From positions 4,322,490-4,386,489 of the forward strand of contig OZ316893.1 in assembly GCA_973895155.1 (NCBI GenBank): a stretch of 64,000 nucleotides of DNA, read 5' to 3'. The stretch comes from Marsupella aquatica (taxonomy: Eukaryota > Plantae > Marchantiophyta). The notes under the pieces are model-generated. The model was not told the DNA's origin. It made no database searches and saw nothing but the letters and a program-made list of their open reading frames with translations. Position numbers and translations under genes: made by a program. Below are positions 6,506 to 38,820 of this stretch, piece after piece. Every line of letters begins with the position of its first letter. The first letter of the stretch is position 1.

Positions 6506-8034
6506 ATGAAACAATCACGAAAAAACGTCTTTTTCAAAACTTCTCACAAAACTCAAAACTCAACACCGCCGCGTAGCCCACGAAGCTAGGAGTCCAATAC
6601 TGAAATCCGAAATCAAAATCGAAATTCGACAAAAAAGTTATTTAAATTTTGGTCGGGGTGGGTAAAACCTTGGGAAACTCCCCCGTGTTGACCACCTCGG
6701 AGAATAACCAAAATACCAAATACAACCCGTCATCGGAATTGCGATGTGATCGGTGCGCCGCGTTGCTAACTCCAGTGGCAATGTCCTCACCGAAAAAGAA
6801 CCAAAAAAGTTACTGTTCGGCGGACGGAATCTTTGTCGAACGGCCAAAAAACAACTCTCTATTTTTTGGGAATATTCCCGCACAGTCCGATAGGTCTCAC
6901 AGGGGGCCGTTCCCCCTGTGGGAGCGGTTAAAACGGAGGGCGGCAGGTCCCGGCACAAGAGGAAAAGCAAGGGGAAAGAAAAAGGCTTAAAATAGGGCCC
7001 TAAAGGGGGTGCAAAGCCCCTTTAAACAAGAATACATGTAAAAGGGCCGTCATACGCACAGGGGGTATACCCGGGCGGCTGCATACGCAGCCGTGTATGC
7101 CGTATGCTAGGCCAGGGAACAAAAAAAAACTTTTGCGAGGAGGAGTGAGGGACGATCGGCGGCCGGCAGGTCGCGTGTAGAAGGAGGCAGGGCTCAAAGG
7201 GCATCGGGGCCGGCCGAAGGAAGGAAAGCACAAAAAAATTCCCCCCTAATGTAAACACAAAAATTTGCCCGGCTGCTTTGCAGCCGTGTTCATTCAAACC
7301 GGGCCAGGGGTCGGGGTGGCTACCATTGCGCTGGCCGGCGCTCCGAAAAACAGTCGTGACAAGAAGTGTGCAGGACGGGGGCGCGCGGGAGGACGTATCT
7401 GCGAGGGGAGGGTGCGGAAACGGGATGTGTATACACACTACATGTGTATACACATGGAAAAAATTAGCCCTAAAGTAACCCAGAAAAAAAATGCTAGTTA
7501 CACACCTTGCCGCCGTTTGAGACAAGGAAAGTGAATGCCGCCGACGGTAAAAAATGGCCGAATTTCACCGGCACTGTCTGCTGCTCCAGCAGAGTAGAAA
7601 TTTTTTGCCGCGACGCCTTCACTCCGCGTCAAGTGCCAATCCTGGGCTCAAAACGACCGCCTCACCGCGATCAAACCGTTGAGCCGTAGCACTTCGCATT
7701 TCTTTCACCGGGTCGAACGTCACGAAGATAAACCCGGTTCAGTTGTGAAAAAGCTCCATAGCTTGTGAAAAAACCTGAACGCCTCCGTCACTCGTCACGT
7801 CGCACTTGGTAACAACTCGGCAGCAATCCAGCAACCGAAACGACCATCTCGCTTCAACCTTCAACTTGAGCTATCATGTGTGATCCCTCCCGTATCGCAC
7901 AACTCACTGTAAACGATAAAAATTACACCGGCGATATTATAGTTTTTCTTTAGGTTTAGAAGTGTCAACTAGAGGTCAACCAAGAGTATTTAGGAAGTAG
8001 TAAGCAAGGACCAACGGTTATTCATTTTGTGGAG

Positions 8035-8640
8035 ATGACAGAAAGGCTGGAAGTAGGGGAGGCAACGATCATCTCGATTAACGGTCGTGTAGGAGTCGAG
8101 TTCTGCTATGAAGGCTGCGATGGCCTACTAGCAGATGGCAGAGTATGTGCCTTAGGCACAAGAGCTCGACAGAGAAGGCAAGGGGGGGCGAATATAGGAA
8201 CCCCTGTTAGCAGGAATCGGTTAGCTCATGAGTGTAAGTCGCTAGGAGAAGGAGTGCCTATGTTCATGTTCACTATTCGGATCAAAGAAGGAAGCTGTCG
8301 TGTATGGGATGCGGCGGGGCAACAATTGTTCAGAATGAAGGGCGAAGAGTTCCGCCAACGATTCACCACCGGCGAGGCCATCGAAGAACTCTGTAGAAAG
8401 GTCATGCGGAAGAAATGGAATCTGCTGCTAAGACGGGATAACAGCCACGATCAGCGGATTACGTGGCGATTAATCACCGCCGAACAAGTAATCGTGGCCG
8501 GCAAACCGAGCAACCCCAAGGAAGATGATAGAAGTCAGGAGGTCGAGGCACATATGGCAAGATTAACAATCGGGAGTCCGGAAGCTTCCGGATCAGGCGC
8601 AACCAAAGGGAATCGAGGAGGCCGTTGCACAGTTCAGTAA
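8035..8640 (+). CDS. LTR-encoded ~201-aa protein, RPA70 C-terminal OB-fold-like (5' LTR copy)
   Basis: Intact ORF with motif series CYEGC..C..HEC..FMFTIRIKEGSCRVWDAAGQQLFRMKGEEF..KKWNLLL. Resembles RPA1 DBD-C (YxAC..CxxC..YxLxxxIxDxTG..AEQLLGxxAEEL). Product call is by eye. Confidence 0.55.
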   Translation: MTERLEVGEATIISINGRVGVEFCYEGCDGLLADGRVCALGTRARQRRQGGANIGTPVSRNRLAHECKSLGEGVPMFMFTIRIKEGSCRVWDAAGQQLFRMKGEEFRQRFTTGEAIEELCRKVMRKKWNLLLRRDNSHDQRITWRLITAEQVIVAGKPSNPKEDDRSQEVEAHMARLTIGSPEASGSGATKGNRGGRCTVQ

Positions 8641-8966
8641 CCAGGAAGACAGAACTTCTTGACATAGTAATCAGCAGTTCTTGGCTTCCACTCATCGTTC
8701 TGGTAGGCATTAGTTAGCGTTCTTGATGAACGAGCGAAGGAGATCAAAGAGGAGGCACGAGTCGTCCAACTGTAATCGGCGCACCCCAAGAAGTAGTAGA
8801 GGCCTCGGGCAGAGACGGACACGAGGCATAGGTATTTAGAGGCTGTGGAGCGCTAGGCGCTCTGTCACTTTTTGCTAGAAGTCTGGGGGCAAGGTAGGGC
8901 TCCGCTCACCTTAGGAATGCCAGCAATTTTGTAATAGTGTCCCTACTCAGTTGAGTAGTCTTTGAG

Positions 8967-8973
8967 TATAAAG
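8967..8973 (+). promoter_or_regulatory. Putative TATA box of the gypsy LTR promoter
   Basis: TATAAAG mid-LTR, downstream of the LTR ORF, followed by a (GA)n tract. Confidence 0.5.
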
Positions 8974-9776
8974 AGAGAGTTTGGAATGAATGCAACAGAG
9001 TGAAGTCCGCACTTGAGCAGTGAATGAGAACGTCAAATCAGAGAGAGAGAGAGAGAAGGAATTTGCCTTATGCAGCAAGTCGTTACTCGTTAATCGCAAC
9101 GATGAATGAATATCGTCTCATTGCGAACCAGAACCTTACGGGCCAGCGCCTCAAGGTATAGGTTGAACAGACAGCTAGTGAGAAGCGGTGTCTGGTTGGA
9201 GATAGTGTGTTTTGAAGGCGATACACTGGTCGTCATACACCTCCATCATACAAGGGTAAACGTGATACTGGGGTACTTGCTTAGGGTAACCCTGTCATAG
9301 TCACCCACACAATCCGGAAATCAATTGCCAGGTAGGCTGATTCAAAGGACAGTCGGACTTAATCAGGTCACGGCTACTAAAAACCATGAACGCAGACAGC
9401 AGTGACGACAAGTCTTGCTCCTTGATTACCTTAAGATCACTGGAACTGTGGATCTGTTCTATCGGCACCCATCTTATTTCCTGTCAGTTACTATACGAGA
9501 ACATTCTGATTTGCTTGATCACTTACCGTGAGTGGTGTGGGTTCATTGAGATTGTGTATAGAGAGGGGTTAGTGTTGGCCGAGGCTGAAGTGCCTAAGAA
9601 GTGGAAGACGGAACTCGACATTCAAGAGCACTTGGTCGGATTCACTTACGGGGACTGTGTCGAGATAGACGGAGTGCCGCCTCTCGAAGGTCGATTAATC
9701 GTTTAAACGAGATTACTGAGGAGAAGGTAGTTAAACGGCCATTAATTGCAAGGTCGAAGTAGGCGTTTAACATTTT

Positions 9777-9794
9777 TGGCGACCATACTGGGGA
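9777..9794 (+). promoter_or_regulatory. Gypsy primer-binding site (probably tRNA-Arg type)
   Basis: TGGCGACCATACTGGGGA 4 nt after the 5' LTR. tRNA identity inferred from resemblance to TGGCGAC-type Arg PBS. Confidence 0.8.
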
Positions 9795-10695: not shown

Positions 10696-11812
10696 ATGGG
10701 CAAGACGCCCATCAATCCCAACGAAGGGGAAATGGCAGAGGAGTTCGAACCTTTCCAAGAAAGCAGACTCAGACTTGAGGTCAAAGAACGAATCGAGACT
10801 TCAAGGGCTCAAGATAAGGTCGAAGAACCCCTGGAAGAAGCCATGGAACGACTTAAAACCCACCAAGGAGCTGGCATTAGTTCGAGATCGGCTCCTACCA
10901 GAAGGGTTAAAATACCCATGTTCAAGGGAGCACCTGATGAAGATGCCGATACCCACTTAGCACGTTTCAAAGAAATGCTCAGAGCTAACCACGAACAGAA
11001 CGACACAGCCCGATTAGAGCTGTTTTCCAGCTCACTGGACAAGGAGGCTTTTGTATGGTACACTCAATACCCAGCTGACCATTTCAAAACTTGGCCTGAG
11101 TTTTCAAAAGAATTCTTAGATCATTACAGAAGGGCTAAGGAAGAATCTGATTTGTATAGCATTCTGCAAAACATGACTCAGAAGAAAGGAGAACCAGTAC
11201 AGAACTATATTGGACGGTTAAAGGTAACAATGAGGCGATTAACTAACAAACCGTCCGACGGGCAACGAATTAGCTGGATGAGAAAGGCTGTGAAGGGAAG
11301 TCTAGTCACAGTGGTAGAACAAAATCCCACTTCTAATGCTGACGAATACGAGAAAAGATTAATACGGCTAGAAGGCATTACTCAAATGCTTAACCAGGAA
11401 AAGAACGAGAGCAGTAAGGATGAAGAGAGGGTTAACCGGAAAACAGAACCTTCTAAGGTAGAAGTCAAGGAAAACCGAGAGCGAGGCGAGCTTAGTACGC
11501 GTAAATTCTGTGAAATACATATGAGGCCTGGACATACTACTCAGGAATGCAACCAGAATCCTTTTAAAAAGAAACCTAGCCTAGGTGTAAATCAGGTAGG
11601 AACAAGCAAACAAGATGGGGATAGGATGGAGAGTAGTCAGGGATATTACAATCCGGATCATAATGCAAACCGAAGGCCCTATAAGGATGGTGGTACTAAA
11701 TACCCACCGATTTGCTATTACTATCGACTAACTGGCCACATCAGGGGGCCCGATTGTGAATTATGGATGAAGCACATGAAAGAAAAAGAAGAAATAGCGG
11801 GGAAAGCCCCAG
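10696..11812 (+). pseudogene. Gypsy gag, N-terminal part (interrupted by the insertion at 11813)
   Basis: Retrotransposon gag motifs KIPMFKG..D..HL..F / AFVWY / TW.EF..EFL.HY / QKKGEPVQNY. Knuckle-like CEIHMRPGHTTQEC. Confidence 0.9.
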
Positions 11813-14800
11813 TGTGGTGCGTCCCATGGCTCCCTAAACCCAAGAAACCCCCCAGCTCAAGCCGATTCCCGCAGGTTTCGCGCTTGGCAAGGCCGTTTCC
11901 GCGGCTTAGCGGCATGGGACGCTGTTAACCTTCTACTACTACTGTTAACATTTTACACACATATACTGGACAGATCCTTCATCGGGTCATGAGATACGTA
12001 GCCGGCCTAATCTAGGCCTTCCCCTGTCTTCCCCTACGTCTTGTTAGGTATGTTTGGATTCCGCCGCCGGAATGATCCCCAATAGGCTTGGTTAAGCCGC
12101 TAAGACCTCTCTCAGCTCGACACATCCAACTCTCACTCCCCTGCTTACTTTCCTTCCTTTTGGTTGATGTGGGCACTCTTCACACAAGTTAATGCGACAC
12201 ACAAATAGCAAAATGACTCATTCTGACTGAGTCATACCATGCACTTGCCATACAAACAGTACATCTCATACACAAGCTCTGCGAACTAAGCCGTGAGGCC
12301 AACTCTATTCAGCTCTTAGGCATGAGGAAACATGAATATACACAAGGGTCACTATATGACTAACCGAGAGCTTCTCGTACTACTTGATCCCAGCCCGGCC
12401 GGTGCAAACTAAAAACTTGCTAAAGAAGAGGCCCTGAGCTCCCCGCTGCCCAGGTACTTATCCTGGTAGTGGATCCGCCATTCTTTGCATCGTAAGCCTA
12501 ATCTACCTAACAGTAATCTACTTGCCCGAATCTACCTATGTACAGCAAGGCAGGAGCACAAGTGTTGCTCCTACCAGTGGAACCGCAATCCCACTAAGCT
12601 AAGTGTCAGGGCCGCTCCTGGTCCTGATCCTAATCCTAAATTTGGAGATCAGTGCCCACCCTGCCCACTCACGCCTCCTCCCTCCACGTCCGCCCTCCCT
12701 AAAAGGAACGGCGCCCTTGCACCGTCACGACACCGGTGGAGGATCCTTAATGGACGCCCCCAACGCTTCCTCCTCAGCCACTGCCGTAGGTTCATTCTCT
12801 GACAGATTACCTGCCCTTGACTGAGTCAACTCTCCATCGGTCTGACTGGGTCCACCATCGGCATCGGCATCGGCTCGGGAATCGGTTACGGCCTCAGCCC
12901 CGGCTACGGTCTCCCCGGCCTGCTCAAGAGGCGGATCTGGAATACCGGCCTCATTACTGAGTAGTTCGGCTTGGGCCGCACCACCCCCACCTATGATGAT
13001 AGCGGGATCTATTGCCGTATTCATGCCGGAGGATGGTGCTGGTTCTACCTCCTTGGTCACCACGGCTTGTGGAGTCGGATTACTCCTTGACCCTGAAGGT
13101 TTCCGCTTTTTCTTCTTTTCTGGTTCGGCAGCTGGTCCCTTCCCCTTCCCACTTACTTCCCGCACTGGTGTAGGTGGCGCGGCTTTTTCTTCGGCCAGTA
13201 CCACTCCTGGTAACTTGGTTGCCCCAATTGGAGTTGGGCCTGATGAAGACAAGCACTTAAATACTGCGGCTTGTTTCTTTAGCCGCTCCGTTTGGTTGTC
13301 GGCCCGCCGCTGGAGGTTCTCCATCTTCCTCGTGATTTCCTCCAACTCCTCCTGGGTCTCATCCAGGTCCTTGCGTGCCTCCTCTAGTTCCTTCTGGGCT
13401 TCCTCCCATTCTTGTTTCAAGGTAGTCCTCTCCTCCCGGGTTGCTCATAGCTCCTTGTCGAGCTCTGCAATGATGACAGACTCCATCTGGTTCATCTTGG
13501 CGTAAGTCTGATCGAGCATCTCGTCCTTCTCCCTGAGGTCGGCCTTGAAGCTGGCCGTCAGGGACGCAAGCTCCTGCTGTAGCACCATAATCCCTTGATA
13601 GGATTTCCCTAACTTGGCCTCCTTCTGCTCAAGGGCTCCGCGGATTTTCTCGAGCTCCCCCTTCAACGCCCATTCCTTTCTTTGGGTCTCCGCCATGGCC
13701 CGGTTGTTGGCTGTTATGTGGGCCTCCTCTGTATTCTTCAGCTCTTGCTTCCACTTCTCCCTCTCCCTGATCGTGTCGGCCAACTCTCCCTGCGTCTGAG
13801 TCAGTTTATCCTTGATATTCTGATTATCAGCCTGCGCGGTGTCCAACTGCCCCTGCATGATGTTCAGCTCATGCCGTTTAATCCGCAGTTCATCTTGGGC
13901 TTTCTTGGCCGCCCTTAGATCTTCAATCTCGGCTTCCCTCCTCCTAAGCCGCCGAATGACCTCGTCCTTCTTGCTTCTCTCTAAAGCCACCGCTTCTTCT
14001 AATTGGTGCTTCTCCAACTGCTCCCTATGGAAAAAGGGTCCTACCTCCAACTCCTCTCCAAAGATGCCGAGCGCAAGTTCCCCACACATCTCACCATACT
14101 CCATGGCTCTATTCTTAGCGTAGGTGGAGTAAGTAGAAGTGATCGGCATCGCCCATCGCGGCCTCTGCTCCCAAGCCGTCTTGCGGATCTCTTCAATCGT
14201 GGCTAGAGGTTTGCTTCCTTTTTTGGCTAGCCGCCTGATGTCCTCCGGCCAATCTCCTCCTGGTAAATCCTTTTCCCTAGCCAGGGCTGCCTCCTCTTCC
14301 TGCCTGATTTGCTCCTGAAATTCCTGCACCGTCTGTTTTATGCCGTCGAAGCTCGGGGGAGCAACATCTGGTGGGGGAGACTCAGGGCTACTCTGCTGGT
14401 TGGGGTCCCCTCGCACTATCCTTGGAAGTGTGGGGACAAACCGGCCACAGGTCCTGGAACGTGATGGTCCGACCCATAGCCGGAATTATCATGGCTGCAG
14501 TCCTCCACTGCCTCCTCTACTTCTTGGACGTCCGGCTTCTCCCTCTCCTCTTCGTCGGTAGGAGCTTCAGGCAATTCTGCCTCAGATTCGGAGCTTGAGA
14601 TTCCCACATACATTCGAACACCTGGCTTGGATTCCGGCCTGATTCTCTCCTTATCTCCAACAAAGGGGTTTTCTCTTGTGAGCCGGTGTAGGCCTACCTC
14701 TGTAGTAGTGTCCTGCATTGTTGCCGTTGCCGTTGTTGTTGCCGATGCCAATTTCTTTTCTTTCTCCAGTAGTTTCAGCAGACTCTGCATGCCTGGTTGC

Positions 14801-16468
14801 TGCATCGGCAAGTCCTCCTTCCTGGGCCTAAACACCTGCTCGATCGTAGGGCTAACAGGTGGTTGAGGCTTCTCAGCCAACGGCCTCGGCATTGGAGCTT
14901 CCTCGGGTGCCCTTACCTGCAGGGGAAGTACTGGGGCAAAAGTCTGACCTCTGGCATACCGGCACAACAGCGGCATGTGATAGCCAAGCCGCGACACGCT
15001 CCCCATGCCAATTACCTGCTGCTCCTCTTTTAAGATCTTCTTCAATTGGTTAAGGAGGTACCCGTTGTAGTCCCGGCTTGGGTCTGGCCTTTCTGCCAGA
15101 TAGACCTGTGCCTTGCCGATCTCTGCCCTCGGCAAGTTATAATGCATGGTCACCCGCAAGAAGTCGATCATCTCTCCTATGTGCGGGTTGGTGCAGGTGT
15201 TCCGGAAGAAGCCATTCTTCGTTGATGGCCCGGGGAACGACCGGAACTCCTTGTCAGGCAAGGTCTTCCTGGTATCAACTTTGGTCTTATTGCCTATCAG
15301 CAAGCCAAACACTTCGGCAATTACCTTGGGAGTAAGATAGAAATCCTTCCCATATATCCTCGTGCAATTGGTCTCGGGTTCCCATGACCCCACAAATTCT
15401 AATAGGTCGGACTCCGGTACCTCCGGCTTCAGCCATGGTAATCTTACAAAGGCCTCTAAGCCGGATCCGGCCATGAAGCCTTGATACTTCTTGGTCTGCA
15501 TTGCCGTAAAGCAAGCATCCTCCTCCCGTGCAAAATGTAGTTGCACTTCCACCGGTAGGGTTGCTGCCCAGCCCTTCCAGGTGTCATCCCTGGTTGGAAT
15601 GGCCTTGATGGGATCGACCTCCTCCTCCTCGGCTTCTCCCTGCCTCCTGCTCTGCTGCTCGGCTGGCTTCTTTGGTGCCGCCGACCTCGTTCTTTTTGCC
15701 GGGGTGGCTTCATCGTTGATGGCTCCCTTCCTCTTCATCTCTGCTGTCATGGAGGTTTCTCCTAGCACCGTTGCCTGGGTCCACCTTTCCATGCTACCCT
15801 TTAATTCCCAGTGTATGTCGTTGCAGTTCTTGATGGCCTCTCGGATGCCGACGACGCTGTCTTTGCAAAACAGAAGATCGTCGAGTCGATTGGAAGTAGG
15901 CGTCCACAGGAACTCGTCCTTGATGAGTTTGCCTCCTAAGAAAGCCGTCTTCTGCAGCTCCCACAATCGAGCGAGCTCCTGCCGTTCTCGAGCTGCCCTT
16001 TCTGATTCCTCGTCCTCGTAAGTCTTGATGTACTCAGTTGCCCGTTCGAACAGGCATCCCCAGAAATGTGCCGCTTGATTGACATTGCTCATACCCTCCT
16101 TAGGTCGATCGTCGGTATCTACTCTCTCCCCGAGTGCTTGCCTAAGCAGCTGACAGTAGTTGGCCTCCCGTAGTCGTCTGCCTAGTTCGTGCTCGCAAAT
16201 GAGCCACCATCTCCTGCAAGCGCTCCTTACCCCTCTCCTCTGCCGGTCCTTCTTCCCGTTGATCCTTCCTAGCCGCCGACGCTTAACGCGCCCTAACCCT
16301 AATCGAGTTTTCACCCTCAGCGTCCTTACCTCCGGCCTCGGCCCGGGTTCCATGGTTGCCCCTAATGGTTTATATTTTCCTTGTTTTGTCCCTATACTAA
16401 GGTGTTCCTAGGGTGCCTTCCTGTTTTACCTACTTAACTGGCCGAGTGATTCCTGTCTAGGCATCACA
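11813..16468 (-). mobile_element. 4656-bp TG...CA element, copy 1 (giant coding solo LTR or non-autonomous integrase-mobilised unit)
   Basis: Ends TGTGGTGC...GCATCACA. TSD CCCAG at 11808-11812 and 16469-16473. Reverse complement of 21456-26091. Confidence 0.93.
12725..16353 (-). pseudogene. ~1200-codon ORF of copy 1, broken by a 7-bp deletion (~14452) and a TGA (13445)
   Basis: ORFs 14416-16353, 13445-14416 and 12725-13420 are colinear with the copy 2 ORF. Confidence 0.85.
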
Positions 16469-16473
16469 CCCAG

Positions 16474-19400
16474 CACCTGTGAATACTGTGCAGGTGTCAA
16501 CATACGTGGTGACAAGATCTCAAGGGCAGCCAGAGAACTCAACCCAAACCAATTCCCCGGAGACGGAGGGGGGATTCGATTGGAGCCAAATGGATGCAAC
16601 CACCCGAGAAATGGCGGATGAAATTCGCCACAAACAGCGGAACAAGACTTTGCCACGACCTGAACGATTAATGCGTTCAGAACCTTACGCAGAGACAGAT
16701 ACGGAAATTCTAGAGGAGGGAGTGACGATGGGGGGATTCGATCAAGAAACAGGACAACTTCCACGAGACGAAGAACCACCGAATAACCCTGCCAAAGCGA
16801 ACCAGCGAATAGTGGATAAGCTAGTGCAACTCATCGCGAAGACCCGAGTCAACATCACTGTCGAAGAACTGTTCCAGTTAGCACCACAGTGTAAGGAAGC
16901 AGTAATGAGACGGTTGGGGGGCAGAATTAGTCCTACCACATTACCTGGAGTACCACTGTACCAAGCTGGGAAGATTCCCCTAATTGACAAAGGAGCCATA
17001 GTACAGATCAGCGTAAGGGGCATCAAACTAAAGAACGTATTGCTGGATGGAGGGTCAGCCGTAAACCTCATGAGTGAGCAGACCTACAGACTGCTAGGCA
17101 GAGTCAAACTCTTACCAGCCCCTTTTAATTTAATAATGGCCGATCAAAGCAGCTGTCACCCACTGGGTTACGTGCCAGACTTACCAATGCTGATTTCAGG
17201 CATCAAGTACAATTTAGGAGTGGTAGTTTTGAGAGAAGCAGATTCCACCCGAGGACAACCCATGTTGTTAGGACGACCTTGGCTAAGACAGGCCAAAGTA
17301 AAACAGCACTGGGGGGAAGAAAAAGATTATATCAAAATAGAACACGGAGGAGAGACTTTCAAGATCAGAACCAAGGCTATCGAGGACGGTGTACCACCTA
17401 TGGCCAGAGTCTATACCTTGAACTGGGCAGAGGGGTTGAATGAGGATGAAGAAGAGACCTATTTAAAATGCCGTCCAGACTTAGTCCCAATTTCAGATAT
17501 GGAAATAGTCAAGCTCGACGAGATGCAAGGAATGACCACAAAAAAATGGATCATGATCTACGAAACGATCTGTTTAAACACATAGACCCGCAAGGCATTC
17601 AAGAGTGCTCATTAAAGGAGGAAGAAGCACAGACCACCTTACAGGATCTAGCAGAAAAGGTGGTGGGATGGAGTGCCACCGAGGAAGAGCACATTCAGAA
17701 GGTCGATTTGAGTGACAGTGAACGACCACGAGAAGTAAAGATAGGGAAACACCTTTCCCCCGAGCTCAAAGAGGAACTTGTTACCCTACTCGCCGAATTC
17801 CGAGATGTTTTTGCCTGGGATTACACGGAGTTAAAGGGAGTTCCAGAGTCAATTGGCGTACATCGAATCCGACTCGTACCAGGATCAGTACCGGTGCAGA
17901 CACAACGATATAGGATGAACCCCAACTATGCGGAAAAGGTAAAAGAAGAAATCCAAAGGCTCCTTGATGCCAAATTCATTGAACCTGTTAAGCGTTATAT
18001 GTGGCTATCCCCGATAGTCGTAGTACCTAAGAAAAATGGGAAGTTAAGAGTCTGCATTGATTTCAGAAAATTAAACGCAGTGACCATAAAAGACCCTTTT
18101 CTGGTACCCTTTCTAGAAGCAGTTCTGGATGTGGTAGCAGGAAAGTCAGCTTATTCATTTTTAGATGGGTACAGCGGGTACAGTCAGGTCCGGTTAGCCA
18201 CAGAAGCAAGGGAGCTGACCACTTTCATTACAGAATGGGGCGCTTTCCAGTGTCTCGTATTACCCTTTGGATTATGCAATGGGCCTAGTACATTCCAGCG
18301 ATTAATGATGATGTTATTTCATGAGTATTTGAATCAGTTTATGCAAATCTTCCTAGATGACTTCACCATATACGGAGAGGAAGAGCAACATATAGGTCAT
18401 CTCAGATTATGCCTCTTAAGATGTAGGGAAGGGGGAGTCAGCCTGAACCCTGATAAGTGCACCTTCTTTGTACCATCGGGCAAGATATTAGGACACATAG
18501 TTTGTAAACAGGGCTTGTTAGTAGACCCAGATAAGATAAAAATCATTAAAGAGATGCCAGTCCCCAATAGTGCAACTCAAGTCAGAAGGTTCCTAGAAGT
18601 GGAGGTTTCTATCGTCGTTACATCAAGAGTTACTCCCAAATCAGTGCCCCGTTGGCACGATTAACGGGTAACCATCAAACGTTCACTTGGGACGACGACT
18701 GTCAGAAAGCGTTTGAAGAAATCAAGGACCGGTTGTGCCATGCACCCATACTCAAGGAGCCAGATTGGAAGAGGGAGTTCCATCTACATACAGATGCTTC
18801 TCTGGTGGCGGTGGGGGCAGTGTTAGCACAGAAGGGAGAACAAGGTATTGATTTACCAGTATACTATGCCAGTAGACTGTTAAACGTGCATGAAAGGAAC
18901 TACACCACGACTGAGAGGGAAGCATTAGCCATGATATTTGCAGTAAAGAAATTTAGGCATTATTTACTTGGGAATCGATTCATATTCTATGTAGATCATA
19001 ATGCCTTGGTCAACTTAGTAAACAAACCACAGCTGTCGGGCCGAATTGCAAGATGGATTTTGTTATTAGCTGAGTTTGATTACACCATCATTTATAAACC
19101 CGGGAAAACCCATGTCATACCCAATTATTTGAGTAGACTCAAATCAGGAGAGACAGGCAAGGAAGAAGACGATCAATTACCGGATATGGAGCTATTTCAA
19201 GACGCCAAGGAAAGGCATCCTGTAAATCTAGTGACCTTGGATGACGAACCAGCATTAGAAAGGTATTTACGCACAGCGGTATTCCCCGAGGGGTTGTCCA
19301 GTAAGGAAAGGAAGGTCTACGCCTATAAGGCAAGACCCTACACCTTGATCAACCACGTGCTTTATTACCAAGGGCCCGATGACATACTACGAAGAGTAGT

Positions 19401-20490
19401 TCCGGAGGAAGAACGGCCAGAAGCCTTAATCGCGGCACATGAATGACTAGGAGGGCGACATTTCGGCACCGAGATCACCCTGAGGAAGATTCTTCAGCAA
19501 GGACGTTGGTGGGCAACTGTCCATAAAGACACTCAGGAGTTTGTAAAAACGTGCGACCTATGTCAGCGTACAGGACCTATGAAGGAAAACATGGAGTTCA
19601 GGCCTATAATCGCCCCTTATATTTTTCAGAAATGGGGACTAGATTTCATAGGACCCATCACTCCATCTTCCAGATACAGTCAGAACCAGTATATTTTAGC
19701 AGCAATAGAGTATGTACCACAAAATGGGTGGAAGCAGTGGCAACTCAGGAGAACACTGCCCGAGTAACAGCCAAGTTCTTGTACCAAAACATCATCACGA
19801 GATACGGATTACCAGGTGAGCTAGTGAGCGATCAAGGTTCACATTTTCTGAACAAGGTTATCCAGGAACTGACGGATAATTACCATATAAGCCATCGGTT
19901 TTCGACTCCCTATTACCCTCAGTGTAACGGACAAGCGGAGTCAACAAACAAAGTCTTACTCAACGTTTTACGGAAAGTGGTTAACGAACAGCAAAACGAT
20001 TGGGACGTTCAGCTGCCGGCGGCAGTATGGGCATTCCGCACGGCATATAAGGTAACCACGGGCCACACCCCTTTTCAATTAATGTTTGGAGTTGAGGCCC
20101 ATATGCCGACAGACTACGAATTACCTAGTTTGCAAATCGCAGCGAGATACGACATAAATCAGAACCCGTGTTTAACTAGACGGTTAAAAGCACTATTGGA
20201 GGTTACCAAAACCCGGAGAAGGGCCGAAGAACGATTAGAGTATGTACAAGGACAACGCAAGCGACAAATAGATGATCAACGGGAGGTAACCACGTTCACG
20301 GAAGGGGAATTAGTACTATGGTGCCGAAAGCGGGCACGAATAAAAAAAGGAAAGTTGAGACTTAAATGGGAAGGACCCTTTACCGTCCTCAAGGCGTGGG
20401 GAAACAGAACCTTTGAAATTACCAGCTAGGATGGGAGCGAGCAACAACGGGTGAACGGGAATAAGATAAAGTCATACCACGTAAGGAATG
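16474..20490 (+). pseudogene. Gypsy gag C-terminus, protease, RT, RNase H and integrase (frameshifted, with stops)
   Basis: Rejoins gag in frame across the TSD (KAP-APVNTV). LLDGGSAVNLM, WLSPIVVVPKKNGKLRVCIDFRKLN, FLDDF, TDAS..GAVLAQ..EREALA, CDLCQR, WGLDFIGP, SDQGSHF, PQCNGQAE, WEGPF, RVNGNKIKSY. Confidence 0.95.
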
Positions 20491-21455
20491 ACGTGTACTT
20501 ATGAGAAGTAGAGGATACGGTTAACGACTACCCAGGGGAAAGCGAAGTCGGCAACGACTCCGATACGGTACTGGCGCTCAACAAGGACGACGACAACTAT
20601 CAACTGCCGACAGCACCACCTAGCGAGAATCAAGCGGATGGAGAAGGGTACGAGCTACCCATTAAAATGGTAGCCTGTATCGGCGTGACCCCCGATCAAG
20701 CATCTACGGAAGCCACCGGAGGGGCACTCACCGCCAAGAACAAGGAACGACCCTTAGCACACGCAAAGAAGCTAGTCGCGACCACCACAGGTGACACACT
20801 ACGATGAGAAGAAAGCACCAATGAACAAGGACGAGAACTAACGATCAAGGAGTACCCGTTAGAGGATTACGTAAACGGAACCATTCCATCAAACAAACCA
20901 ACGGAATCAGGTCAAATCAAGTCAGTGGTTCTAGCGGAGGAGGACCTATATCTGAAATCTTTCAGATCCACGATTGGAAGCACAAATTACCCAAAGGCCA
21001 GGAAGAGAGGAGGAGAAGGTTTCCTTATAGAGTAGTAATCGTAGGATGTACACACGGACCCTTTTCCACATGGATTGCAGATCGGATTTTGATAGGACCC
21101 AACTCGATACCCTGTATTGAGGACTACTCCACGGGAAAATTACATGTTATACTAGAAGTTCAGGATACACTAGAATCCAAAGGGCGAGCACCATCACCCG
21201 CAAAAGAACTGTTAAACCAAAAACCCTATTTCCGACTGGCAAGGAGATTACGAGAGAACCCCGAGTGGAGTGGCTATCAGCGCGAGGTGAAATTCGAATG
21301 GTCGAGGGTCGGTAATAGGCATTACACATTACCGGTGGGCATGAAGACTTTGAAGTTGAAACGATCAAACGAGTTTGAGGACGATAAACCGAGGAAGCGC
21401 GTTACTATCAACGAACTACTCGAAACCCCGGCGATGGAGGAGACACCAGCCCCCA
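20491..21455 (+). pseudogene. Post-integrase extension / start of the 3' extra ORF
   Basis: The integrase frame continues with isolated TGA stops to ~21030. After one frameshift the frame is open to the insertion at 21456. Confidence 0.55.
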
Positions 21456-24400
21456 TGTGATGCCTAGACAGGAATCACTCGGCCGGTTAAGTGGGTAAAG
21501 CAGGAAGGCACCCTAGGAACACCTTAGTATAGTGACAAAACAAGGAAAATATAAACAATTAGGGGCAACCATGGAACCCGGGCAGAGGCCGGAGGTAAGG
21601 CTGAGGGTGAAAACCCGATTAGGGTTAGGGCGCGTTAAGCGTCGGCGGCTAGGAAGGATCAACGGGAAGAAGGACCGGCAGAGGAGAGGGGTAAGGAGCG
21701 CTTGCAGGAGATGGTGGCTCATTTGCAAGCACGAACTAGGCAGACGACTACGGGAGGCCAACTACTGTCAACTGCTTAGGCAAGCACTCGGGGAGAGAGT
21801 AGATACCGACGATCGACCTAAGGAGGGTATGAGCAACGTCAATCAAGCGGCACATTTCTGGGGATGCCTGTTCGAACGGGCAACTGAGTACATCAAGACT
21901 TACGAGGACGAGGAGTCAGAAAGGGCAGCTCGAGAACGGCAGGAGCTCGCTCGATTGTGGGAGCTGCAGAAGACGGCTTTCTTAGGAGGCGAACTCATCA
22001 AGGACGAGTTCCTGTGGACGCCTACTTCCAATCAACTCGACGATCTTCTGTTTTGCAAAGACAGCGTCGTCGGCATCCGAGAGGCCATCAAGAACTGTAA
22101 CGACATACACTGGGAATTAAAGGGTAGCACGGAAAGGTGGACCCAGGCAACGGTGCTAGGAGAAACCTCCACGGCAGCAGAGATGAAGAGGAAGGGAGCC
22201 GTCAACGATGAAGCCACCCCGGCAAAAAGAACGAGGTCGGCGGCACCAAAGAAGCCAGCCGAGCAGCAGAGCAGGAGGCAGGGAGAAGCCGAAGAGGAGG
22301 AGGTCGATCCCATCAAGGCCATTCCAACCAGGGATGACACCTGGAAGGGCTGGGCGGCAACCCTACCGGTGGAGGTGCAACTACATTTTGCACGGGAGGA
22401 GGATGCTTGCTTTACGGCCATGCAGACCAAGAAGTACCAAGGCTTCATGGCCGGATCCGGCTTGGAGGCCTTTGTAAGATTACCATGGCTGAAGCCGGAG
22501 GTACCGGAGTCAGACCTATTAGAATTCGTGGGGTCATGGGAACCCGAGACCAATTGCACGAGGATATATGGGAAGGATTTCTATCTTACTCCCAAGGTGA
22601 TTGCCGAAGTGTTTGGCTTGCCAATGGGCAATAAGACCAAAGTTGATACCAGGAAGACCTTGCCTGACAAGGAGTTCCGGTCGTTCCCCGGGCCATCAAC
22701 GAAGAATGGCTTCTTCCGGAACACCTGCACCAACCCGCACATAGGAGAGATGATCGACTTCTTGCGGGTGACCATGCATTGTAACTTACCGAGGGCAGAG
22801 ATCGGCAAGGCACAGGTCTATCTGGCAGAAAGGCCAGACCCAAGCCGGGACTACAACGGGTACCTCCTCAACCAATTGAAGAAGATCTTAAAGGAGGAGC
22901 AGCAGGTAATCGGCATGGGGAGCGTGTCGCGGCTTGGCTATCACATGCCGCTGTTGTGCCGGTATGCCAGAAGTCAGACTTTTGCCCCGGTACTTCCCCT
23001 GCAGGTAAGGGCACCCGAGGAAGCTCCAACGCCGAGGCCGTTGGCTGAAAAGCCTCAACCACCTGTTAGTCCTACGATCGAGCAGGTGTTTAGGCCCAGG
23101 AAGGAAGACTTGCCGATGCAGCAACCAGGCATGCAGAGTCTGCTGAAACTACTGGAGAAAGAAAAGAAATCGGCATCGGCAACAACAACGGCAACGGCAA
23201 CAATGCAGGACACTACTACAGAGGTAGGCCTACACCGGCTCACAAGAGAAAACCCCTTTGCTGGAGACAAGGAGAGAATCAGGCCGGAATCCAAGCCAGG
23301 TGTTCGAATGTACGTGGGAACCTCAAGCTCCGAATCTGAGGCAGAATTGCCTGAAGCTCCTACCGACGAAGAGGAGAGGGAGAAGCCGGACGTCCAAGAG
23401 GTAGAGGAGGCAGTGGAGGACTGCAGCCATGATAATTCCGGCTATGGGTCGGACCATCACGTTCCAGGAGTAAGGACCTGTGGCCGGTTTGTCCCCACAC
23501 TTCCAAGGGTAGTGCGAGGGGACCCCAACCAGCAGAGTAGCCCTGAGTCTCCCCCACCAGATGTTGCTCCCCCGAGCTTCGACGGCATAAAACAGACGGT
23601 GCAGGAATTTCAGGAGCGAATCAAGCAGGAGGAAGAGGCCGCCCTGGCTAAGGAAAAGGATTTACCAGGAGGAGATTGGCCGGAGGACATCAGGCGGCTA
23701 GCCGAAAAAGGAAGCAAACCTCTAGCCACGATTGAAGAGATCCGCAGGACGGCTTGGGAGTAGAGGCCACGATGGGCGATGCCGATCACTTCTACTTACT
23801 CCACCTACGCTAAGAATAGAGCCATGGAGTATGGTGAGATGTGTGGGGAACTTGCGCTCGGCATCTTTGGAGAGGAGTTGGAGGTAGGACCCTTTTTCCA
23901 TAGGGAGCAGTTGGAGAAGCACCAATTAGAAGAAGCGGTGGCTTTAGAGAGAAGCAAGAAGGACGAGGTCATTCGGCGGCTTAGGAGGATGGAAGCCGAG
24001 ATTGAAAATCTAAGGGCGGCCAAGAAAGCCCAAGATGAACTGCGGATTAAACGACATGAGCTGAACATCATGCAGGGGCAGTTGGACGCCGCGCAAGCTG
24101 ATAATCAGAATATCAAGGATAAACTGACTCAGACGCAGGAAGAGTTGGCCGACACGATCAAAGAGAGGGAGAAGTGGAAGCAAGAGCTGAAGAATACAGA
24201 GGAGGCCCACATAACAGCCAACAGCCGGGCCATGGCGGAGACCCAAAGAAAGGAATGGGCGTTGAAAGGGGAGCTCGAGAAAATCCGCGGAGCCCTTGAG
24301 CAGAAGGAGGTCGAGTTAGGGAAATCCTATCAAGGGATTATGGCGCTGCAGCAGGAGCTTGCGTCCCTGACGGCCAGCTTCAAGGCCGACCTAAGGGAGA

Positions 24401-26091
24401 AGGACGAGATGCTCGAACAGACTTACGCCAAGATGAACCAGATGGAGTCTGTCATCATTGCAGAGCTCGACAAGGAGCTAAGAGCAACCCAGGAGGAGAG
24501 GGCTACCTTGAAGAAGGAATTGGAGGAAGCCCACAGGGAGCAGGAGGAGGCCAAAAACGAGCTGGAGGGGGCACGTAAGGACCTGGATGAAACCCAAGAG
24601 GAGTTGGAGGAAATCACGAGGAAGATGGAGAACCTACAGCGGCGGGCCGACAACCAAACAGAGCGGTTGAAGAAACAAGCCGCAGTATTTAAATGCTTAG
24701 CTGCAGCAGGTCCATCTCCCGTTGGGACAAACCAGTTACCAGGGGTGGTAATTGCCGAAGGACAAGCCGCGTCAACTGCACCAGTGCCGGAAGTAAGTGG
24801 GAAGGGGAAGGGACCAGCTGCCGAGCCACCAACGAAGAAGAAGCGGAAACCTCCAGGGTCAAGGAGTAATACGACTTCACAGGCCGTGGTGATCAAGGAG
24901 GTAGACCCAGCACCGACCCCAGACAGGGTCACGGCTAAGGATCCAACTACCCTAGGGGAAGGGGAGGCCGAAGCCGTGGGAGTGGCTGAGGCCGAAGCCG
25001 TGGGTATTGCCGAGGCCGGTGTCGAGGCTGAAGCCGAAGGTGGACCCAGTCAGGCCGATGGAGAGTTGACTCGGTCAAGGGCAGGTAATCTGTCAGTAGG
25101 CGGGCCAACGGCAGTGGCTGAGGAGGAAGTGTTGGGGGCGTCCATTGAGGATCCACCACCGGTGTCGTGACGGTGCAAGGGCGCCGTTCCTTTTAGGGAG
25201 GGCGGACGTGGAGGGAGGAGGCGTGAGTGGGCAGGGCGGGCGCGGATCTCCACGTTTAGGATTAGGATCAGAACCAGGAGCGGCCCTGACACTTAGCTTA
25301 GTGGGATTGCGGTCCCACTGGTAGGAGCAACACTTGTGCTCCTGCCTTGCTGTACATAGGTAGATTCGGGCAAGTAGATTACTGTTAAGTAGATTAGGCT
25401 TACGATGCAAAGAATGGCGGATCCACTACCAGGATAAGTACCTGGGCAGCGGGGAGCTCAGGGCCTCTTCTTTAGCAAGTTTTTAGTTTGCACCAGCCGG
25501 GCTGGGATCAAGTAGTACGAGAAGCTCTCGGTTAGTCATACAGTGACCCTTGTGTATATTCATGTTTCCTCATGCCTAAGAGCTGAATAGAGTTGGCCTC
25601 ACGGCTTAGTTCGCAGAACTTGTGTATGAGATGTACTGCTTGTATGGCAAGTGCATGGTATGACTCAGTCAGAATGAGTCATTTTGCTATTTGTGTGTCG
25701 CATTAACTTGTGTGAAGAGTGCCCACATCAACAGAAGGAAGGAAAGTAAGCAGGGGAGTGAGAGTTGGATGTGTCGAGCTGAGAGAGGTCTTAGTGGCTT
25801 AACCAAGCCTATTGGGGATCATTCCGGCGGCGGAATCCAAACATACCTAACAAGACGGAGGGGAAGACAGGGGAAGACAGGGGAAGGCCTATATTAGGCC
25901 GGCTACGTATCTCATGACCCGATGAAGGATCTGTCCAGTATATGTGTGTAAAATGTTAATAGTAGTAGTAGAAGGTTAGCAGCGTCCCATGCCGCTAAGC
26001 CGCGGAAACAGCCTCGCCAAGCACGAAACCTGCGGGAATCGGCTTGAGCTGGGGGGTTTCTTGGGTTTAGGGAGCCATGGGACGCACCACA
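21456..26091 (+). mobile_element. 4636-bp TG...CA element, copy 2
   Basis: Ends TGTGATGC...GCACCACA. TSD CCCCA at 21451-21455 and 26092-26096. Confidence 0.93.
21571..25170 (+). pseudogene. 1199-codon ORF of copy 2 with one premature TAG (23761): basic N-terminus, transposon-protein-like domain, acidic linker, coiled coil, NLS-like KKKRK
   Basis: ORFs 21532-23763 and 23779-25170 share one frame. Copy 1 has CAG where copy 2 has TAG. Confidence 0.88.
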
Positions 26092-26096
26092 CCCCA

Positions 26097-28648
26097 CGCA
26101 CACAGAGGGAGAAGGGCCGACAACAGCAGAGGGCATGGAGCTGGAAGTTTCTGAGTCAGCGGAAAGGTAAAGGAGCAACCCCAAAGATGATCAAGAGATC
26201 GTGAGTCAGGGACCTTCAGCGGCTGACCATCTCTCGGAAACTATAGCCAAAAGGGAAGGGCAGGGGCCCGCCGAGGAGCCAACCCTAGAGACACAAACCG
26301 AATCAGTAATCGAGGCACCAACGGAGCAAGCGGCCGAGCAGACAGAAGAACAACAGGGAAACCAACTAAACAAACTTCAACGAGAAGGGAGACGGAAGCT
26401 GACCATGGCAGAATTGTTAGCCAACCAGGATCCCACGGAAGCAATCACGACGGTCACCACAGCGATAATTGAGGAAACAACTCCTTCTAGGACCAAGAGG
26501 AACCGCAAGGGGACAGCCAAAACGATTAAACTTGAGCCGCCAACGATGAGGGAGGTGCGATCCGTAAGGGGAAAGAGCAAAATAGTCGAATACGAGGAGG
26601 AAGAACCGGAAGAATCCGACAGTGAAGAAGAAGAAGAACCAGCAGAAGAAGCAAAAAGTAGGACCAGGAAGGCGACGCGCGCCGCAAAGGCGAGTCCAGG
26701 GGAAACAAGTCATGTTTTGAAATTTGAGAGAATGGGGCCACAGATATTGCAAACTATGCGCGGACAAGCACACAGGAAATTTCTACAGACACAAGGATTG
26801 GAGAAATTCATGAAACTAAAGTGGAATCAAACCACGAAGCTACAAGCAGAGGACTACAGCGAGTTCATCACCACGTGGAAACCCACCGAAAATCAGGGAA
26901 TATGTAGGGGCCAAGTCATTAAGACGAATACTCGGAAGCTTCAGGAGCTTTTCAAACTGCCAAAGCAAGGAGCGAAGATCAAGAAACGGATGGGGAAAAC
27001 TTGGCAACCTGCCACATTTCCACAACACAAGGACGTAGACGACAACAGGGGCTATCCGACCAAGCATTGCACGAATGAGAAAATCAAGGAAAGGCTCGAA
27101 TTCGTAACCCATGCATTACATTGGAAGAGGCCCAGATCAGAATATCCTCGATTTATGATTAAAATTGTAGAGGAGGGAGACGGGAAGCAAAAGGATTGGT
27201 CGGCCTTTTTCCACGAAGGGTTTCATGCAGCCATCAAGCGAACTAAATGATTAATCAGCAGTAAAAGCAACCTGCCAGTAGAGATCGAGTCGCATCTCCA
27301 AGTGCTAATCGAGAGTCAGCTTACAGGGGAAGACGGCGGAAAAACGGAATCAGCAGCAACCATTTACCAACCAACGAGGAGTGAGGGAGCCAAGAAGCAG
27401 GAGGGCACCCTGCCAGAAGAGGAAGCAGCCAACAAAGAGCAAGAGGGGGACGCATCACCAGTGCGCACCACCAGGAGGAAAGAAACCAATCCAACACCGA
27501 CCAAGAAGGAGTCAGAATCAGAGGGTCAGGAACCAGCGGAGGAAGACAAAATGCGAGCAGAAACCAAGGCTTATAGGACAGCGCCCATTGATGACGACGA
27601 CCTCAAGTACGCCCTCTCAACCGTAAAAGAAGGTGATGAACAACAATTACGGGAGAAGCTGGGGATCGAAGTATTGAAAGAGAAGATCAGCACAGTGCAA
27701 AAAGATAGCATCTTTACAGTCATGATCGGACAAATCGCCAGTCAATTAGCCATTTATCAGGGAATAACGAGTTCGCTAGTACACTTGGAGTGGAACAAGC
27801 GAGAAGAAGAAATCGCCGAGGACTTAGCCGGGAAGGAGGAGGCAGATAAATGGGCAGTGGAGGCCGAGGAGACCATCAAGGAGTTACTAAATTGTAACAA
27901 AGAGCTAATAGCAGATAAGGATCGACTGACAACCATAGGAAGAGGCTGGAGGCATGAGGAGGCAGCCACACAGGAATTGGCTGATTACCTAGGAATAGAA
28001 GGGTTACGTCCAGGGGGACTAACGACAAATTACCAGGAGGTTGTCATGGCCATCGGAGCAGCCATAGCCACAGTCAAAGCAGATAGCCAAAAGATCAATT
28101 CACAGCTAAGGGAGGATAACGAGAAACTCAAGGAAATAGAAGAATTGCAATCGCAACTCAAGGATGAAGCAGCAAAGCAACGCAGAACAGCCGGTGAATG
28201 GGCAGTGGAACGCCAAAGGGTGGAGGAATTGAAGAAAAAGCTCCAGGGTCTGGAAACCCAACTCCAGCAAACCACCGCAGTCAAAGGGGACCCCACGGAG
28301 AATCTGAACAAACAAGCCCTACTGGAGGAGCAACTGGGGAAGCTCGGAAGAAAACACTATGAAGTATCGGAGAGTTGGAGAATCACAGAAGACGACTATA
28401 AGTGGAAAATTGCTGAGTTAGAAGCCACGGTGAAGCTACAGGGCACTGGAGAGGAGAGTATCACTGAACAGACCAAGGAACTCGAGCAGTTGAGGACAGA
28501 GAACGATCAGCTTTCGCAAGAATTGGAAGATAAGGAACGATCAATTTTGGATTTAAAATCCGAAGTGAGGAAGCTGAAGGCACAGAGTAGAGTTTCGATA
28601 ACTCCAACCAGGACGACCAATGTTAGCGAGGGTAGGGGAGTGAAGTAG
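26097..28648 (+). pseudogene. 3' extra ORF of the gypsy element: acidic/basic region, plant transposon-protein-like domain, long coiled coil
   Basis: One frame throughout, in frame with the 21089 ORF across the TSD. Only two internal stops (TAA ~26168, TGA 27248). Heptad-rich C-terminus. Confidence 0.8.
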
Positions 28649-28725: not shown

Positions 28726-30592
28726 TGTAAACGATAAAAATTACACCGGCGATATTATAGTTTTTCTTTAGGTTTAGAAGTGTCAACTAGAGGTCAACCA
28801 AGAGTATTTAGGAAGTAGTAAGCAAGGACCAACGGTTATTCATTTTGTGGAGATGACAGAAAGGCTGGAAGTAGGGGAGGCAACGATCATCTCGATTAAC
28901 GGTCGTGTAGGAGTCGAGTTCTGCTATGAAGGCTGCGATGGCCTACTAGCAGATGGCAGAGTATGTGCCTTAGGCACAAGAGCCCGACAGAGAAGGCAAG
29001 GGGGGGCAAATATAGGAACCCCCGTTAGCAGGAATCGGTTAGCTCATGAGTGTAAGTCGCTAGGAGAAGGAGTGCCTATGTTCATGTTCACTATTCGGAT
29101 CAAAGAAGGAAGCTGTCGTGTATGGGATGCGGCGGGGCAACAATTGTTCAGAATGAAGGGCGAAGAGTTCCGCCAACGATTCACCACCGGCGAGGCCATC
29201 GAAGAACTCTGTAGAAAGGTCATGCGGAAGAAATGGAATCTCCTGCTAAGACGGGATAACAGCCACGATCAGCGGATTACGTGGCGATTAATCACCGCCG
29301 AACAAGTAATCATGGCCGGCAAACCGAGCAACCCCAAGGAAGATGATAGAAGTCAGGAGGTCGAGGCACATATGGCAAGATTAACAATCGGGAGTCCGGA
29401 AGCTTCCGGATCAGGCGCAACCACAGGGAATCGAGGAGGCCGTTGCACAGTTCAGTAACCAGGAAGACAGAACTTCTTGACATAGTAATCAGCAGTTCTT
29501 GGCTTCCACTCATCGTTCTGGTAGGCATTAGTTAGCGTTCTTGATGAACGAGCGAAGGAGATCAAAGAGGAGGCACGAGTCGTCCAACTGTAATCGGCGC
29601 ACCCCAAGAAGTAGTAGAGGCCTCGGGCAGAGACGGACACGAGGCATAGGTATTTAGAGGCTGTGGAGCGCTAGGCGCTCTGTCACTTTTTGCTAGAAGT
29701 CTGGGGGCAAGGTAGGGCTCCGCTCACCTTAGGAATGCCAGCAATTTTGTAATAGTGTCCCTACTCAGTTGAGTAGTCTTTGAGTATAAAGAGAGAGTTT
29801 GGAATGAATGCAACAGAGTGAAGTCCGCACTTGAGCAGTGAATGAGAACGTCAAATCAGAGAGAGAGAGAGAGAGAAGGAATTTGCCTTATGCAGCAAGT
29901 CGTTACTCGTTAATCGCAACGATGAATGAATATCGTCTCATTGCGAACCAGAACCTTACGGGCCAGCGCCTCAAGGTATAGGTTGAACAGACAGCTAGTG
30001 AGAAGCGGTGTCTGGTTGGAGATAGTGTGTTTTGAAGGCGATACACTGGTCGTCATACACCTCCATCATACAAGGGTAAACGTGATACTGGGGTACTTGC
30101 TTAGGGTAACCCTGTCATAGTCACCCACACAATCCGGAAATCAATTGCCAGGCAGGCTGATTCAAAGGACAGTCGGACTTAATCAGGTCACGGCTACTAA
30201 AAACCATGAACGCAGACAGCAGTGACGACAAGTCTTGCTCCTTGATTATCTTAAGATCACTGGAACTGTGGATCTGTTCTATCGGCACCCATCTTATTTC
30301 CCGTCAGTTACTATACGAGAACATTCCGATTTGCTTGATCACTTACCACGAGTGGTGTGGGTTCATTGAGATTGTGTATAGAGAGGGGTTAGTGTTGGCC
30401 AAGGCTGAAGTGCCTAAGAAGTGGAAGACGGAACTCGACATTCAAGAGCACTTGGTCGGATTCACTTACGGGGACTGTGTCGAGATAGACGGAGTGCCGC
30501 CTCTCGAAGGTCGATTAATCATTTAAACGAGATTACTGAGGAGAAGGTAGTTAAACGGCCATTAATCGCAAGGTCGAAGTAGGCGTTTAACA
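28726..30592 (+). repeat. Gypsy 3' LTR (1867 bp)
   Basis: Direct repeat of 7908-9772, preceded by a purine tract. Confidence 0.97.
28853..29458 (+). CDS. LTR-encoded ~201-aa RPA70C/OB-fold-like protein (3' LTR copy)
   Basis: Same ORF, intact, 2 amino-acid differences from the 5' copy. Confidence 0.55.
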   Translation: MTERLEVGEATIISINGRVGVEFCYEGCDGLLADGRVCALGTRARQRRQGGANIGTPVSRNRLAHECKSLGEGVPMFMFTIRIKEGSCRVWDAAGQQLFRMKGEEFRQRFTTGEAIEELCRKVMRKKWNLLLRRDNSHDQRITWRLITAEQVIMAGKPSNPKEDDRSQEVEAHMARLTIGSPEASGSGATTGNRGGRCTVQ

Positions 30593-30856: not shown

Positions 30857-30868
30857 GCTCTGATACCA
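30857..30868 (-). promoter_or_regulatory. Copia primer-binding site (tRNA-iMet)
   Basis: Minus strand TGGTATCAGAGC, 2 nt after the 5' LTR. Confidence 0.95.
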
Positions 30869-30870
30869 CT

Positions 30871-31214
30871 TATTGAGCATAGACGACATTCGTAATGGCA
30901 AGCCCATGAACCATCCAACGCACAATAGTCGACACAGAGAGATACGTGGTTCACCTTCACATGAGGCTACGTCCACGGGAACACACAAGAGCTTTACTGC
31001 ACTCTAGGCCGACCGGCCATACCAAGCATCCACAGCACAAGCTCTCCCTATCTCTCAACTAGCTCCGTAACAATGAGCCTAAGTTGCACCAGGGTCTGGC
31101 ATCAGCCCTGGCTATATGCACAACAGCACTACCGCTAACCTTAGCTAGGTCCTAACCTGAGTTAGCCTAACTGTGGTTAGCACAAGAGTCATAAGACTAG
31201 AGCAATATCTAACA
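30871..31214 (-). repeat. Copia 5' LTR
   Basis: Direct repeat of 1683-2026. Its inner terminal CA has mutated to TA. Confidence 0.97.
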
Positions 31215-31286
31215 TCTCTTGTGTCAACTACTTGCGCGTTGGATGTGTCATGTGCTTACCATTGTGAATGTCGTCTATGCTCAACA
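31215..31286 (+). mobile_element. Older solo LTR, right part
   Basis: Continues the reverse-complement LTR to ...gtcgtctatgctcAACA. Followed by GGCAG (31287-31291), matching 1398-1402. Confidence 0.9.
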
Positions 31287-38049: not shown

Positions 38050-38441
38050 TCTTGCCATCTTTTTCTCATCTCGCCATCATTTCTCACATTAATTGACATC
38101 TTTTATATTTCACCACGACATCTTATTCTCATCCTCAACTTTTTTTTCTCACCCTCGACATTTTCTTGCTCCTTGACATTTTTAATCACCTTGACATTTT
38201 TTCTCAACTTGACATCTTATCTTTGTCTCACCAAAATATCATTCCTTCAACATTGATATATTTTCTCTCCTTGATGTCTTTACATGTTTTTCTCACCTCA
38301 CCATCTTTTCACTCCTTGACATATTTTCCTCACCTTGGTATTTTTTTTCTCTCATTGACATCTTTTCTCAACATCTTTTTCTCACGTCGACAACTTTTCT
38401 CACCTCAACATCTTTTGTGCAACACACGGGTATTGGGCTAG
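38050..38441 (+). mobile_element. Non-autonomous Helitron-like 3' part with ~20-bp degenerate minisatellite
   Basis: Ends ttttGTGCaacaCACgggtattgggCTAG-t. Internal repeats like ttttctcaccttgacatc. 5' boundary approximate. Confidence 0.6.
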
Positions 38442-38453
38442 TTATATATATTA

Positions 38454-38820
38454 CTAGGCTGATGCATGTGCATTGCACAAAAGATGTTGAGATAAGAAAA
38501 GATGTTGAGGTGAGAAAAAGATGTTGATGAAAGAAAAGGATGTCAAGGTGAGGAAACAAAATCGAGGTACTACATATATAAGAAAAACCAGAAGAAAAAC
38601 ATTTTGGGGAGAGGAAAGATAGCAAAGTGAGAAAAAGATGTCAAAGAGAGAAAGGATGTCGAGGGTGAGGGAAATATGTCATGGTGAGATACATATGTCA
38701 AGGTAAGAAAAAGATGACAAGATGAGAAAAAAGATAAGATGTATGTCAAGGTGAGAAAAGATGTTGAGGTGAGAAAAACATATCAAGGTGAGAAAACATC
38801 TAGATGAGAGAAAAAGATGA
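38454..38820 (-). mobile_element. Non-autonomous Helitron-like 3' part (same family, opposite strand)
   Basis: Minus strand ends ttttGTGCaatGCACatgcatcagcCTAG-t. Same minisatellite. Confidence 0.6.

Follow-up and report, generated by a model that had tools for sequence, protein, structure and literature searches.

We analyzed a 64,000-nt stretch of contig OZ316893.1 from the liverwort Marsupella aquatica (here called the window, on which all positions are based), where a Ty3/gypsy retrotransposon carries two insertions, A and B, of a 4.6-kb unit that consists mostly of one gene (Table 1). The two copies face opposite ways, and each runs from TG to CA between the two halves of its own target site duplication (TSD), with seven of the first nine bases inverted at the ends of both. 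These TSDs and inverted-type ends had been recognized in the original prediction, made from the letters of the DNA, and so had the want of an internal long terminal repeat (LTR) pair, primer site, purine tract, reverse transcriptase (RT), integrase, or DDE motif. We likewise found no direct repeat, and no primer site or purine tract belonging to the unit itself, inside it, and no gag-pol or transposase domain (see below). The target sites of A (11801-11812/16469) and B (21444-21455/26092) were alike, AGCCCC followed by AG or CA in Ala-Pro codons, despite the opposite orientation of the units, a possible target preference in a sample of two.

The copies had been described as near-identical. Two copies there are, with an overall identity of 95.5% that is unevenly spread: outside 24450-25150, they differed at 74/2987 and 22/931 sites (2.4 to 2.5%), and the segment in between was far more diverged (Table 1). 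This patch is likely a recombinant between subfamilies and would fit template switching between copackaged RNAs. Since the divergence between A and B was three times that of the host LTRs (15/1864 sites, 0.8%), the two were copied from different sources before landing.

Table 1. Positions of the unit, its gene, and its gypsy host in the window
Feature	Position	Strand	Remarks
Unit copy A	11813..16468	-	4656 bp; sits in host gag-protease frame
Unit copy B	21456..26091	+	4636 bp, TG...CA; likely solo LTR, sense orientation
TSD of A, CCCAG	11808..11812, again 16469-16473	+	Perfect, 5 bp
TSD of B, CCCCA	21451..21455, again 26092-26096	+	Perfect, 5 bp
Gene in copy A	12725..16353	-	Disrupted by 7-nt gap near 14456 and stop 13445-13447
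Frame of B	21571..25170	+	ATG at 21571; 1199 codons; 3600/4636 bp, 78% of unit
TATAAA, candidate gene promoter	21550..21555	+	Only one in unit, both strands; 95 bp from left end
Conserved globular core, aa 260-470	22348..22980	+	PMD/VANC-like by predicted fold; Atlas features resemble Transposase_32/ATHILA
Long coiled coil, about aa 785-1040	23923..24690	+	From sequence; weak sub-threshold matches to coiled-coil Pfam families
Diverged patch	24450..25150	+	111/680 sites differ between A and B (16%)
Non-coding tail	25171..26091	+	921 bp; putative polyA region and R-U5
Host 5' LTR	7908..9772	+	TSD CTCAC; followed by 4 nt, then primer-binding site
Host primer-binding site, non-Met	9777-9794	+	4 nt past 5' LTR
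Host gag-protease-RT-RNase H-integrase	10696..20429	+	Decayed; split by copy A
Host accessory open reading frame	20825..28648	+	Sense, between pol and 3' LTR; split by copy B
Host 3' LTR	28726..30592	+	Purine tract ahead of LTR

The 1199-codon gene and its product

The frame of B, which fills the share of the unit that the original prediction had assigned to it, has a single lesion, a stop at codon 731 (23761-23763). We compared the unit with 16 listed public sequencing runs, one of them possibly from the same source as the window, and aligned contigs of four to it; in all four, another letter made up 88 to 100% of the depth at this stop, which is thus private to B. The lesions of A are separate, and an intact ancestor, as predicted, stands. 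Within the frame, A and B are separated by five indels, one of which is the lesion of A; the other four preserve the frame. The ratio of nonsynonymous to synonymous change (dN/dS) between the copies, a check proposed along with the prediction, was 0.07 for aa 231-480 (15 synonymous and 4 nonsynonymous differences; Fisher p 1.5e-7), 0.25 for aa 1-960, and 0.36 for the entire frame, while codons 1-87 held only four differences, too few to inform on selection. Among the variant places listed for the public runs, 18/32 in-frame ones fell on the third codon position (444 further rows) and 10/12 indels fell in the non-coding tail (5 further). The frame is under purifying selection, and the gene is real.

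The TATAAA box lies 21 bp ahead of the first ATG, and a later start codon is therefore likely if the box is used. A telobox-like TAGGGTT was found near it, at 21620. No AATAAA was present in the tail.

The protein combines basic patches, a globular core, and a long coiled coil. A Pfam scan of its two frame halves gave no gag, RT, RNase H, or integrase, all of which the same scan found in the host frames, and no rve or transposase match at E 0.1 or better in either half, with the host and copia integrases detected. A transmembrane stretch, as expected of an env-like gene, was also not found (maximum 19-residue hydropathy, 0.98). The original prediction had drawn an analogy to sag of mouse mammary tumor virus and nef of HIV, genes in or overlapping U3 of animal retroviruses. 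It holds for the layout, in that a gene would lie within an LTR, but not for the proteins: those of the viruses are far shorter and unrelated, and the unit protein has no transmembrane stretch and a predicted Transposase_32/ATHILA/PMD/VANC-like character (PMD, plant mobile domain).

This character was seen in distant comparisons. None of 17 aligned proteins matched Pfam PF03078, PF20167, or PF10536, and among the Atlas neighbors of the unit protein at 0.89, PF20167 occurred in 87% of members and PF03078 in 73%. The best fold match of the core was a DNA transposon protein, VANC21 of VANDAL21 (PDB 9lnk), at 10% identity. The protein is weakly predicted to resemble the plant Transposase_32/ATHILA/PMD/VANC accessory group, in which VANC and PMD factors have a DUF1985/PMD fold. 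The original prediction had missed this group.

VANC releases plant transposons from silencing. VANC21, which formed the comparison group together with the PMD proteins MAIN/MAIL (in the parts cited of PMC5418596 and bioRxiv 10.1101/2024.09.27.615353), belongs to MuDR DNA transposons of eudicots (PMC5735166, in part). Elements with VANC carry arrays of short target motifs in non-coding DNA, which were not found in the unit tails, and VANC proteins have a coiled coil for self-assembly; such a coil is predicted in the unit protein. VANC proper, encoded by VANDAL/MuDR elements, was rejected as an identity, since the unit has TG...CA ends, a 5-bp TSD, and no transposase match. The tail of the unit protein also holds peptide repeats, EAEAVG[VI]A (24960-25040), whose number differs between A and B through 48- and 6-nt indels; repeat-rich variable regions are also present in VANC proteins.

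Abundance and flanks in public sequencing runs

Part of the unit was present in 14/16 listed runs, and half or more of it in six, with four organism codes and four studies represented. Summed contig depth, which is not copy number, was 166,000-804,000 (run X1) and 322,000-1,288,000 (run X2) inside the unit. The host bins on either side reached 320-2,400, and in 4/4 runs the depth fell at both unit ends. The unit family is very abundant, so that finding two of its insertions in the same host is not surprising. The original prediction had found it notable that both copies lie in a gypsy element with a homologous gene; the homologue proved real (see below), and the oddity is reduced by the abundance. 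Joints from the unit ends to the unit middle were also found, indicating that the unit also inserts into itself. The metagenome and viral collections scanned held no match to it and hence no paired copies.

Contig ends running past 26091 were mostly diverse (agreement, 0.38-0.63). For run X2, the majority letters of 37 such ends equaled the host LTR-to-primer-site junction, with no shift, at 7/9 first places and at 10/21 places overall. Simulated random flanks reached 7/9 at P 0.002 and had an agreement of 0.344 +/- 0.009 against the 0.38 seen, and about six shared flanks among the 37 would reproduce both the match and the agreement; the comparison was post hoc, and the agreement measure of the tool may differ from that of the simulation. 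The letters hint at a shared primer-site-like flank beyond the right end of the unit.

The gypsy host and its surroundings

The host accessory gene is interrupted by copy B and ends 78 bp upstream of the 3' LTR. Its core (26717-27268), followed by a coiled coil, was 24% identical to the unit protein over 184 aa (E 3e-13), a real but distant homologue. The named relatives of the unit gene come from a liverwort. The N-terminal part of the host gene (20825-21455), 211 codons ahead of copy B, had no Pfam match; the whole gene would have about 1060 codons and a single stop (27248-27250).

Non-Met primer sites and sense accessory open reading frames (ORFs) are described as marks of non-chromoviruses (PMC6317226, in part), and from these features we infer that the host belongs to a non-chromovirus (Athila/Tat-like) Ty3/gypsy lineage. 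No extra RNase H or chromodomain match was found in its pol; Tat-like elements of liverworts are described without the extra RNase H in the part cited of PMC13468544. Plant accessory ORFs are described as internal (PMC7264820; PMC6317226), lying either ahead of gag or downstream of pol and before the 3' LTR (PMC7264820; PMC11963269; PMC11728184), as far as the parts cited go. The host homologue has the textbook place of Athila/OTA genes, between pol and the 3' LTR. The sense accessory ORFs of Athila/OTA elements (ATHILA ORF1, PF03078; Transposase_32, PF20167) are, like the unit gene, non-gag-pol genes kept in most copies, and their products also join a globular core to a coiled coil and basic patches (PMC7264820; PMC11728184; PMC6317226, each in part). 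The unit differs in that its gene, of 1199 codons and with no Pfam match, lies within TG...CA ends, that is, inside the putative LTR, and would persist in solos.

Each of the paired host LTRs holds a sense open frame of 226 codons near its left end (7960-8640 and 28778-29458; Met at 8035), preceded by a splice-acceptor-like run. By eye it has a likeness to a zinc-ribbon OB fold (RPA-like), and Pfam, PDB, and Atlas gave no match; if real, the frame would make this the second coding LTR of the lineage. The host is itself nested in a minus-strand copia element (parts at 1676-2026, 30864-31215, and 2450-7564; LTRs of about 345 bp), with a third copia LTR, 92% identical, at 671-1021. Elsewhere, the window contains 19-bp purine-rich degenerate tandem arrays (38050-38840 and 39890-40545, partly inverted about 38447) and a 116-bp tandem unit (59371-59870) in four copies, three of them at 97% identity.

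Origin of the unit

The unit is a real, conserved, and abundant coding unit, with integrase-type ends and TSDs, a gene under purifying selection, high copy number, and homology to a host accessory gene that lies upstream of a purine tract and 3' LTR. LTR reverse transcription needs a repeat pair, a primer site, and a purine tract, and long LTRs readily recombine to solos. As the unit itself lacks both an internal repeat pair and a primer site, a lone copy could not be reverse transcribed by the known LTR route, and this mechanism favors an LTR over a stand-alone unit. The explanation we prefer, with somewhat better than an even chance, traces the unit to an abundant Ty3/gypsy family of non-chromovirus (Athila/Tat-like) type: the LTR of this family would be 4.6 kb long and include an accessory gene, weakly predicted to encode a VANC/PMD-like DNA-binding protein that would act against silencing of the family, and the unit would be a solo copy of this LTR. 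Non-chromovirus LTRs near 5 kb are known (PMC6317226, in part). That the unit is the coding LTR of a family with gag-pol is reasonably likely, and that it is a coding LTR, the paired form lacking gag-pol included, is quite likely. Given a coding LTR, the anti-silencing role of the protein, a matter of predicted fold, comes close to an even call but falls a little short of it.

In the course of events we envisage, the purine tract that sets the left edge of the LTR would have moved upstream of the accessory gene, so that the gene joined U3 and was copied to both LTRs. Full elements may then have integrated in the host, where the two long LTRs of each would have recombined, leaving solos with TSDs intact. 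The gene would be transcribed from the left-end TATA box and end at an LTR polyA site in the tail, making every LTR, paired or solo, a complete transcription unit. The product is predicted to enter the nucleus, to oligomerize by its coiled coil, and to bind family-specific DNA, where it would oppose methylation or Polycomb silencing of the family. Three observations weigh against this account: the primer-site hint was absent from the X3 and X6 rows (3 and 4 contigs), and so was present in 1/3 listed; a TATA box for genomic RNA was not found in the unit; and no short target-motif array was detected, as no 5-7-mer exceeded shuffles in the tail of either copy, the tails being the parts searched.

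The original prediction had left the choice between a coding solo LTR, now favored, and a single-gene parasite mobilized in trans, which we consider unlikely. The unit would then be the entire element, consisting of one VANC-like anti-silencing gene flanked by integrase ends in the absence of an LTR pair. A gypsy helper integrase would have spread it to very many copies, landing in gypsy elements that it would in turn unsilence, and it would persist because its protein, through anti-silencing or packaging, benefits itself or the helper. Each of the two copies is a lone unit with a TSD of its own, both lie in one gypsy copy within 5 kb, and the TATA box at the left end and the UTR-like (untranslated region-like) tail would suit such an element. 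The diverse loose ends past 26091 do so too, but are equally expected of solos and 3' LTRs. Known reverse transcription could not rebuild both ends of such a unit, and the shared-flank hint suggests an internal region beyond it.

Equally improbable is a non-autonomous element resembling large retrotransposon derivatives (LARD) or terminal-repeat retrotransposons in miniature (TRIM), in which the stretch between two coding LTRs is short or non-coding and includes a primer site and purine tract, gag-pol comes from a helper, and the window copies are solos. It accommodates whatever the preferred explanation does, the primer-site hint included, and the window holds gag-pol of just one gypsy family, although a single window says little about where gag-pol is located. 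The 15 joints with the best support were listed (97 further), and none of these 15 was a short one from the end of the unit to its start.

A little less probable still is a coding LTR in reverse, with the gene antisense to gag-pol, as in Retand/Grande, and transcribed from the U5 end by an antisense promoter. In Retand, antisense ORFs with TRP28, SMC-like coils, and their own promoter are the rule (PMC11963269; PMC7264820, each in part), and the TATA box near one end of the unit suits such a promoter. These TRP28 ORFs share with the unit, as proposed here, an accessory gene with its own promoter, predicted DNA binding, and SMC-like coils; they differ in being antisense, internal, and from flowering plants, in elements whose LTRs are short, averaging about 635 bp (PMC11963269, in part). 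Against a reversed arrangement, the homologue in the host runs in the same sense as pol, and the primer-site hint lies beyond the 3' end of the gene.

Ginger-like DDE transposons have long terminal inverted repeats and an integrase-like DDE domain, and a DNA transposon of this kind, either autonomous or, like VANDAL, with an accessory gene alone, is very improbable: single copies with TSDs and the best fold match would agree with it, but the terminal inversion covers 7/9 bases only, neither frame half has an rve or transposase match, and the sequence homologue resides in a gypsy element.

Solo-LTR recombination is the normal route of retrotransposon deletion in plant genomes. If the unit is, as is likely, a solo LTR that has engulfed a gene of PMD/VANC-like type, and the LTR holds a full 3.6-kb counter-silencing gene, then deletion leaves the gene in every solo, and the dose of the gene would track the history of the family rather than its live copies. 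A plant LTR consisting mostly of one gene was not found in our searches of the open-licence literature, supplements aside. The unit opens the question of what Athila/Tat accessory proteins do to testing. PMDs are described in angiosperms (PMC5418596, in part); a VANC-like fold in a liverwort gypsy element would extend this protein group beyond them and bear on whether the PMD arose in retrotransposons.
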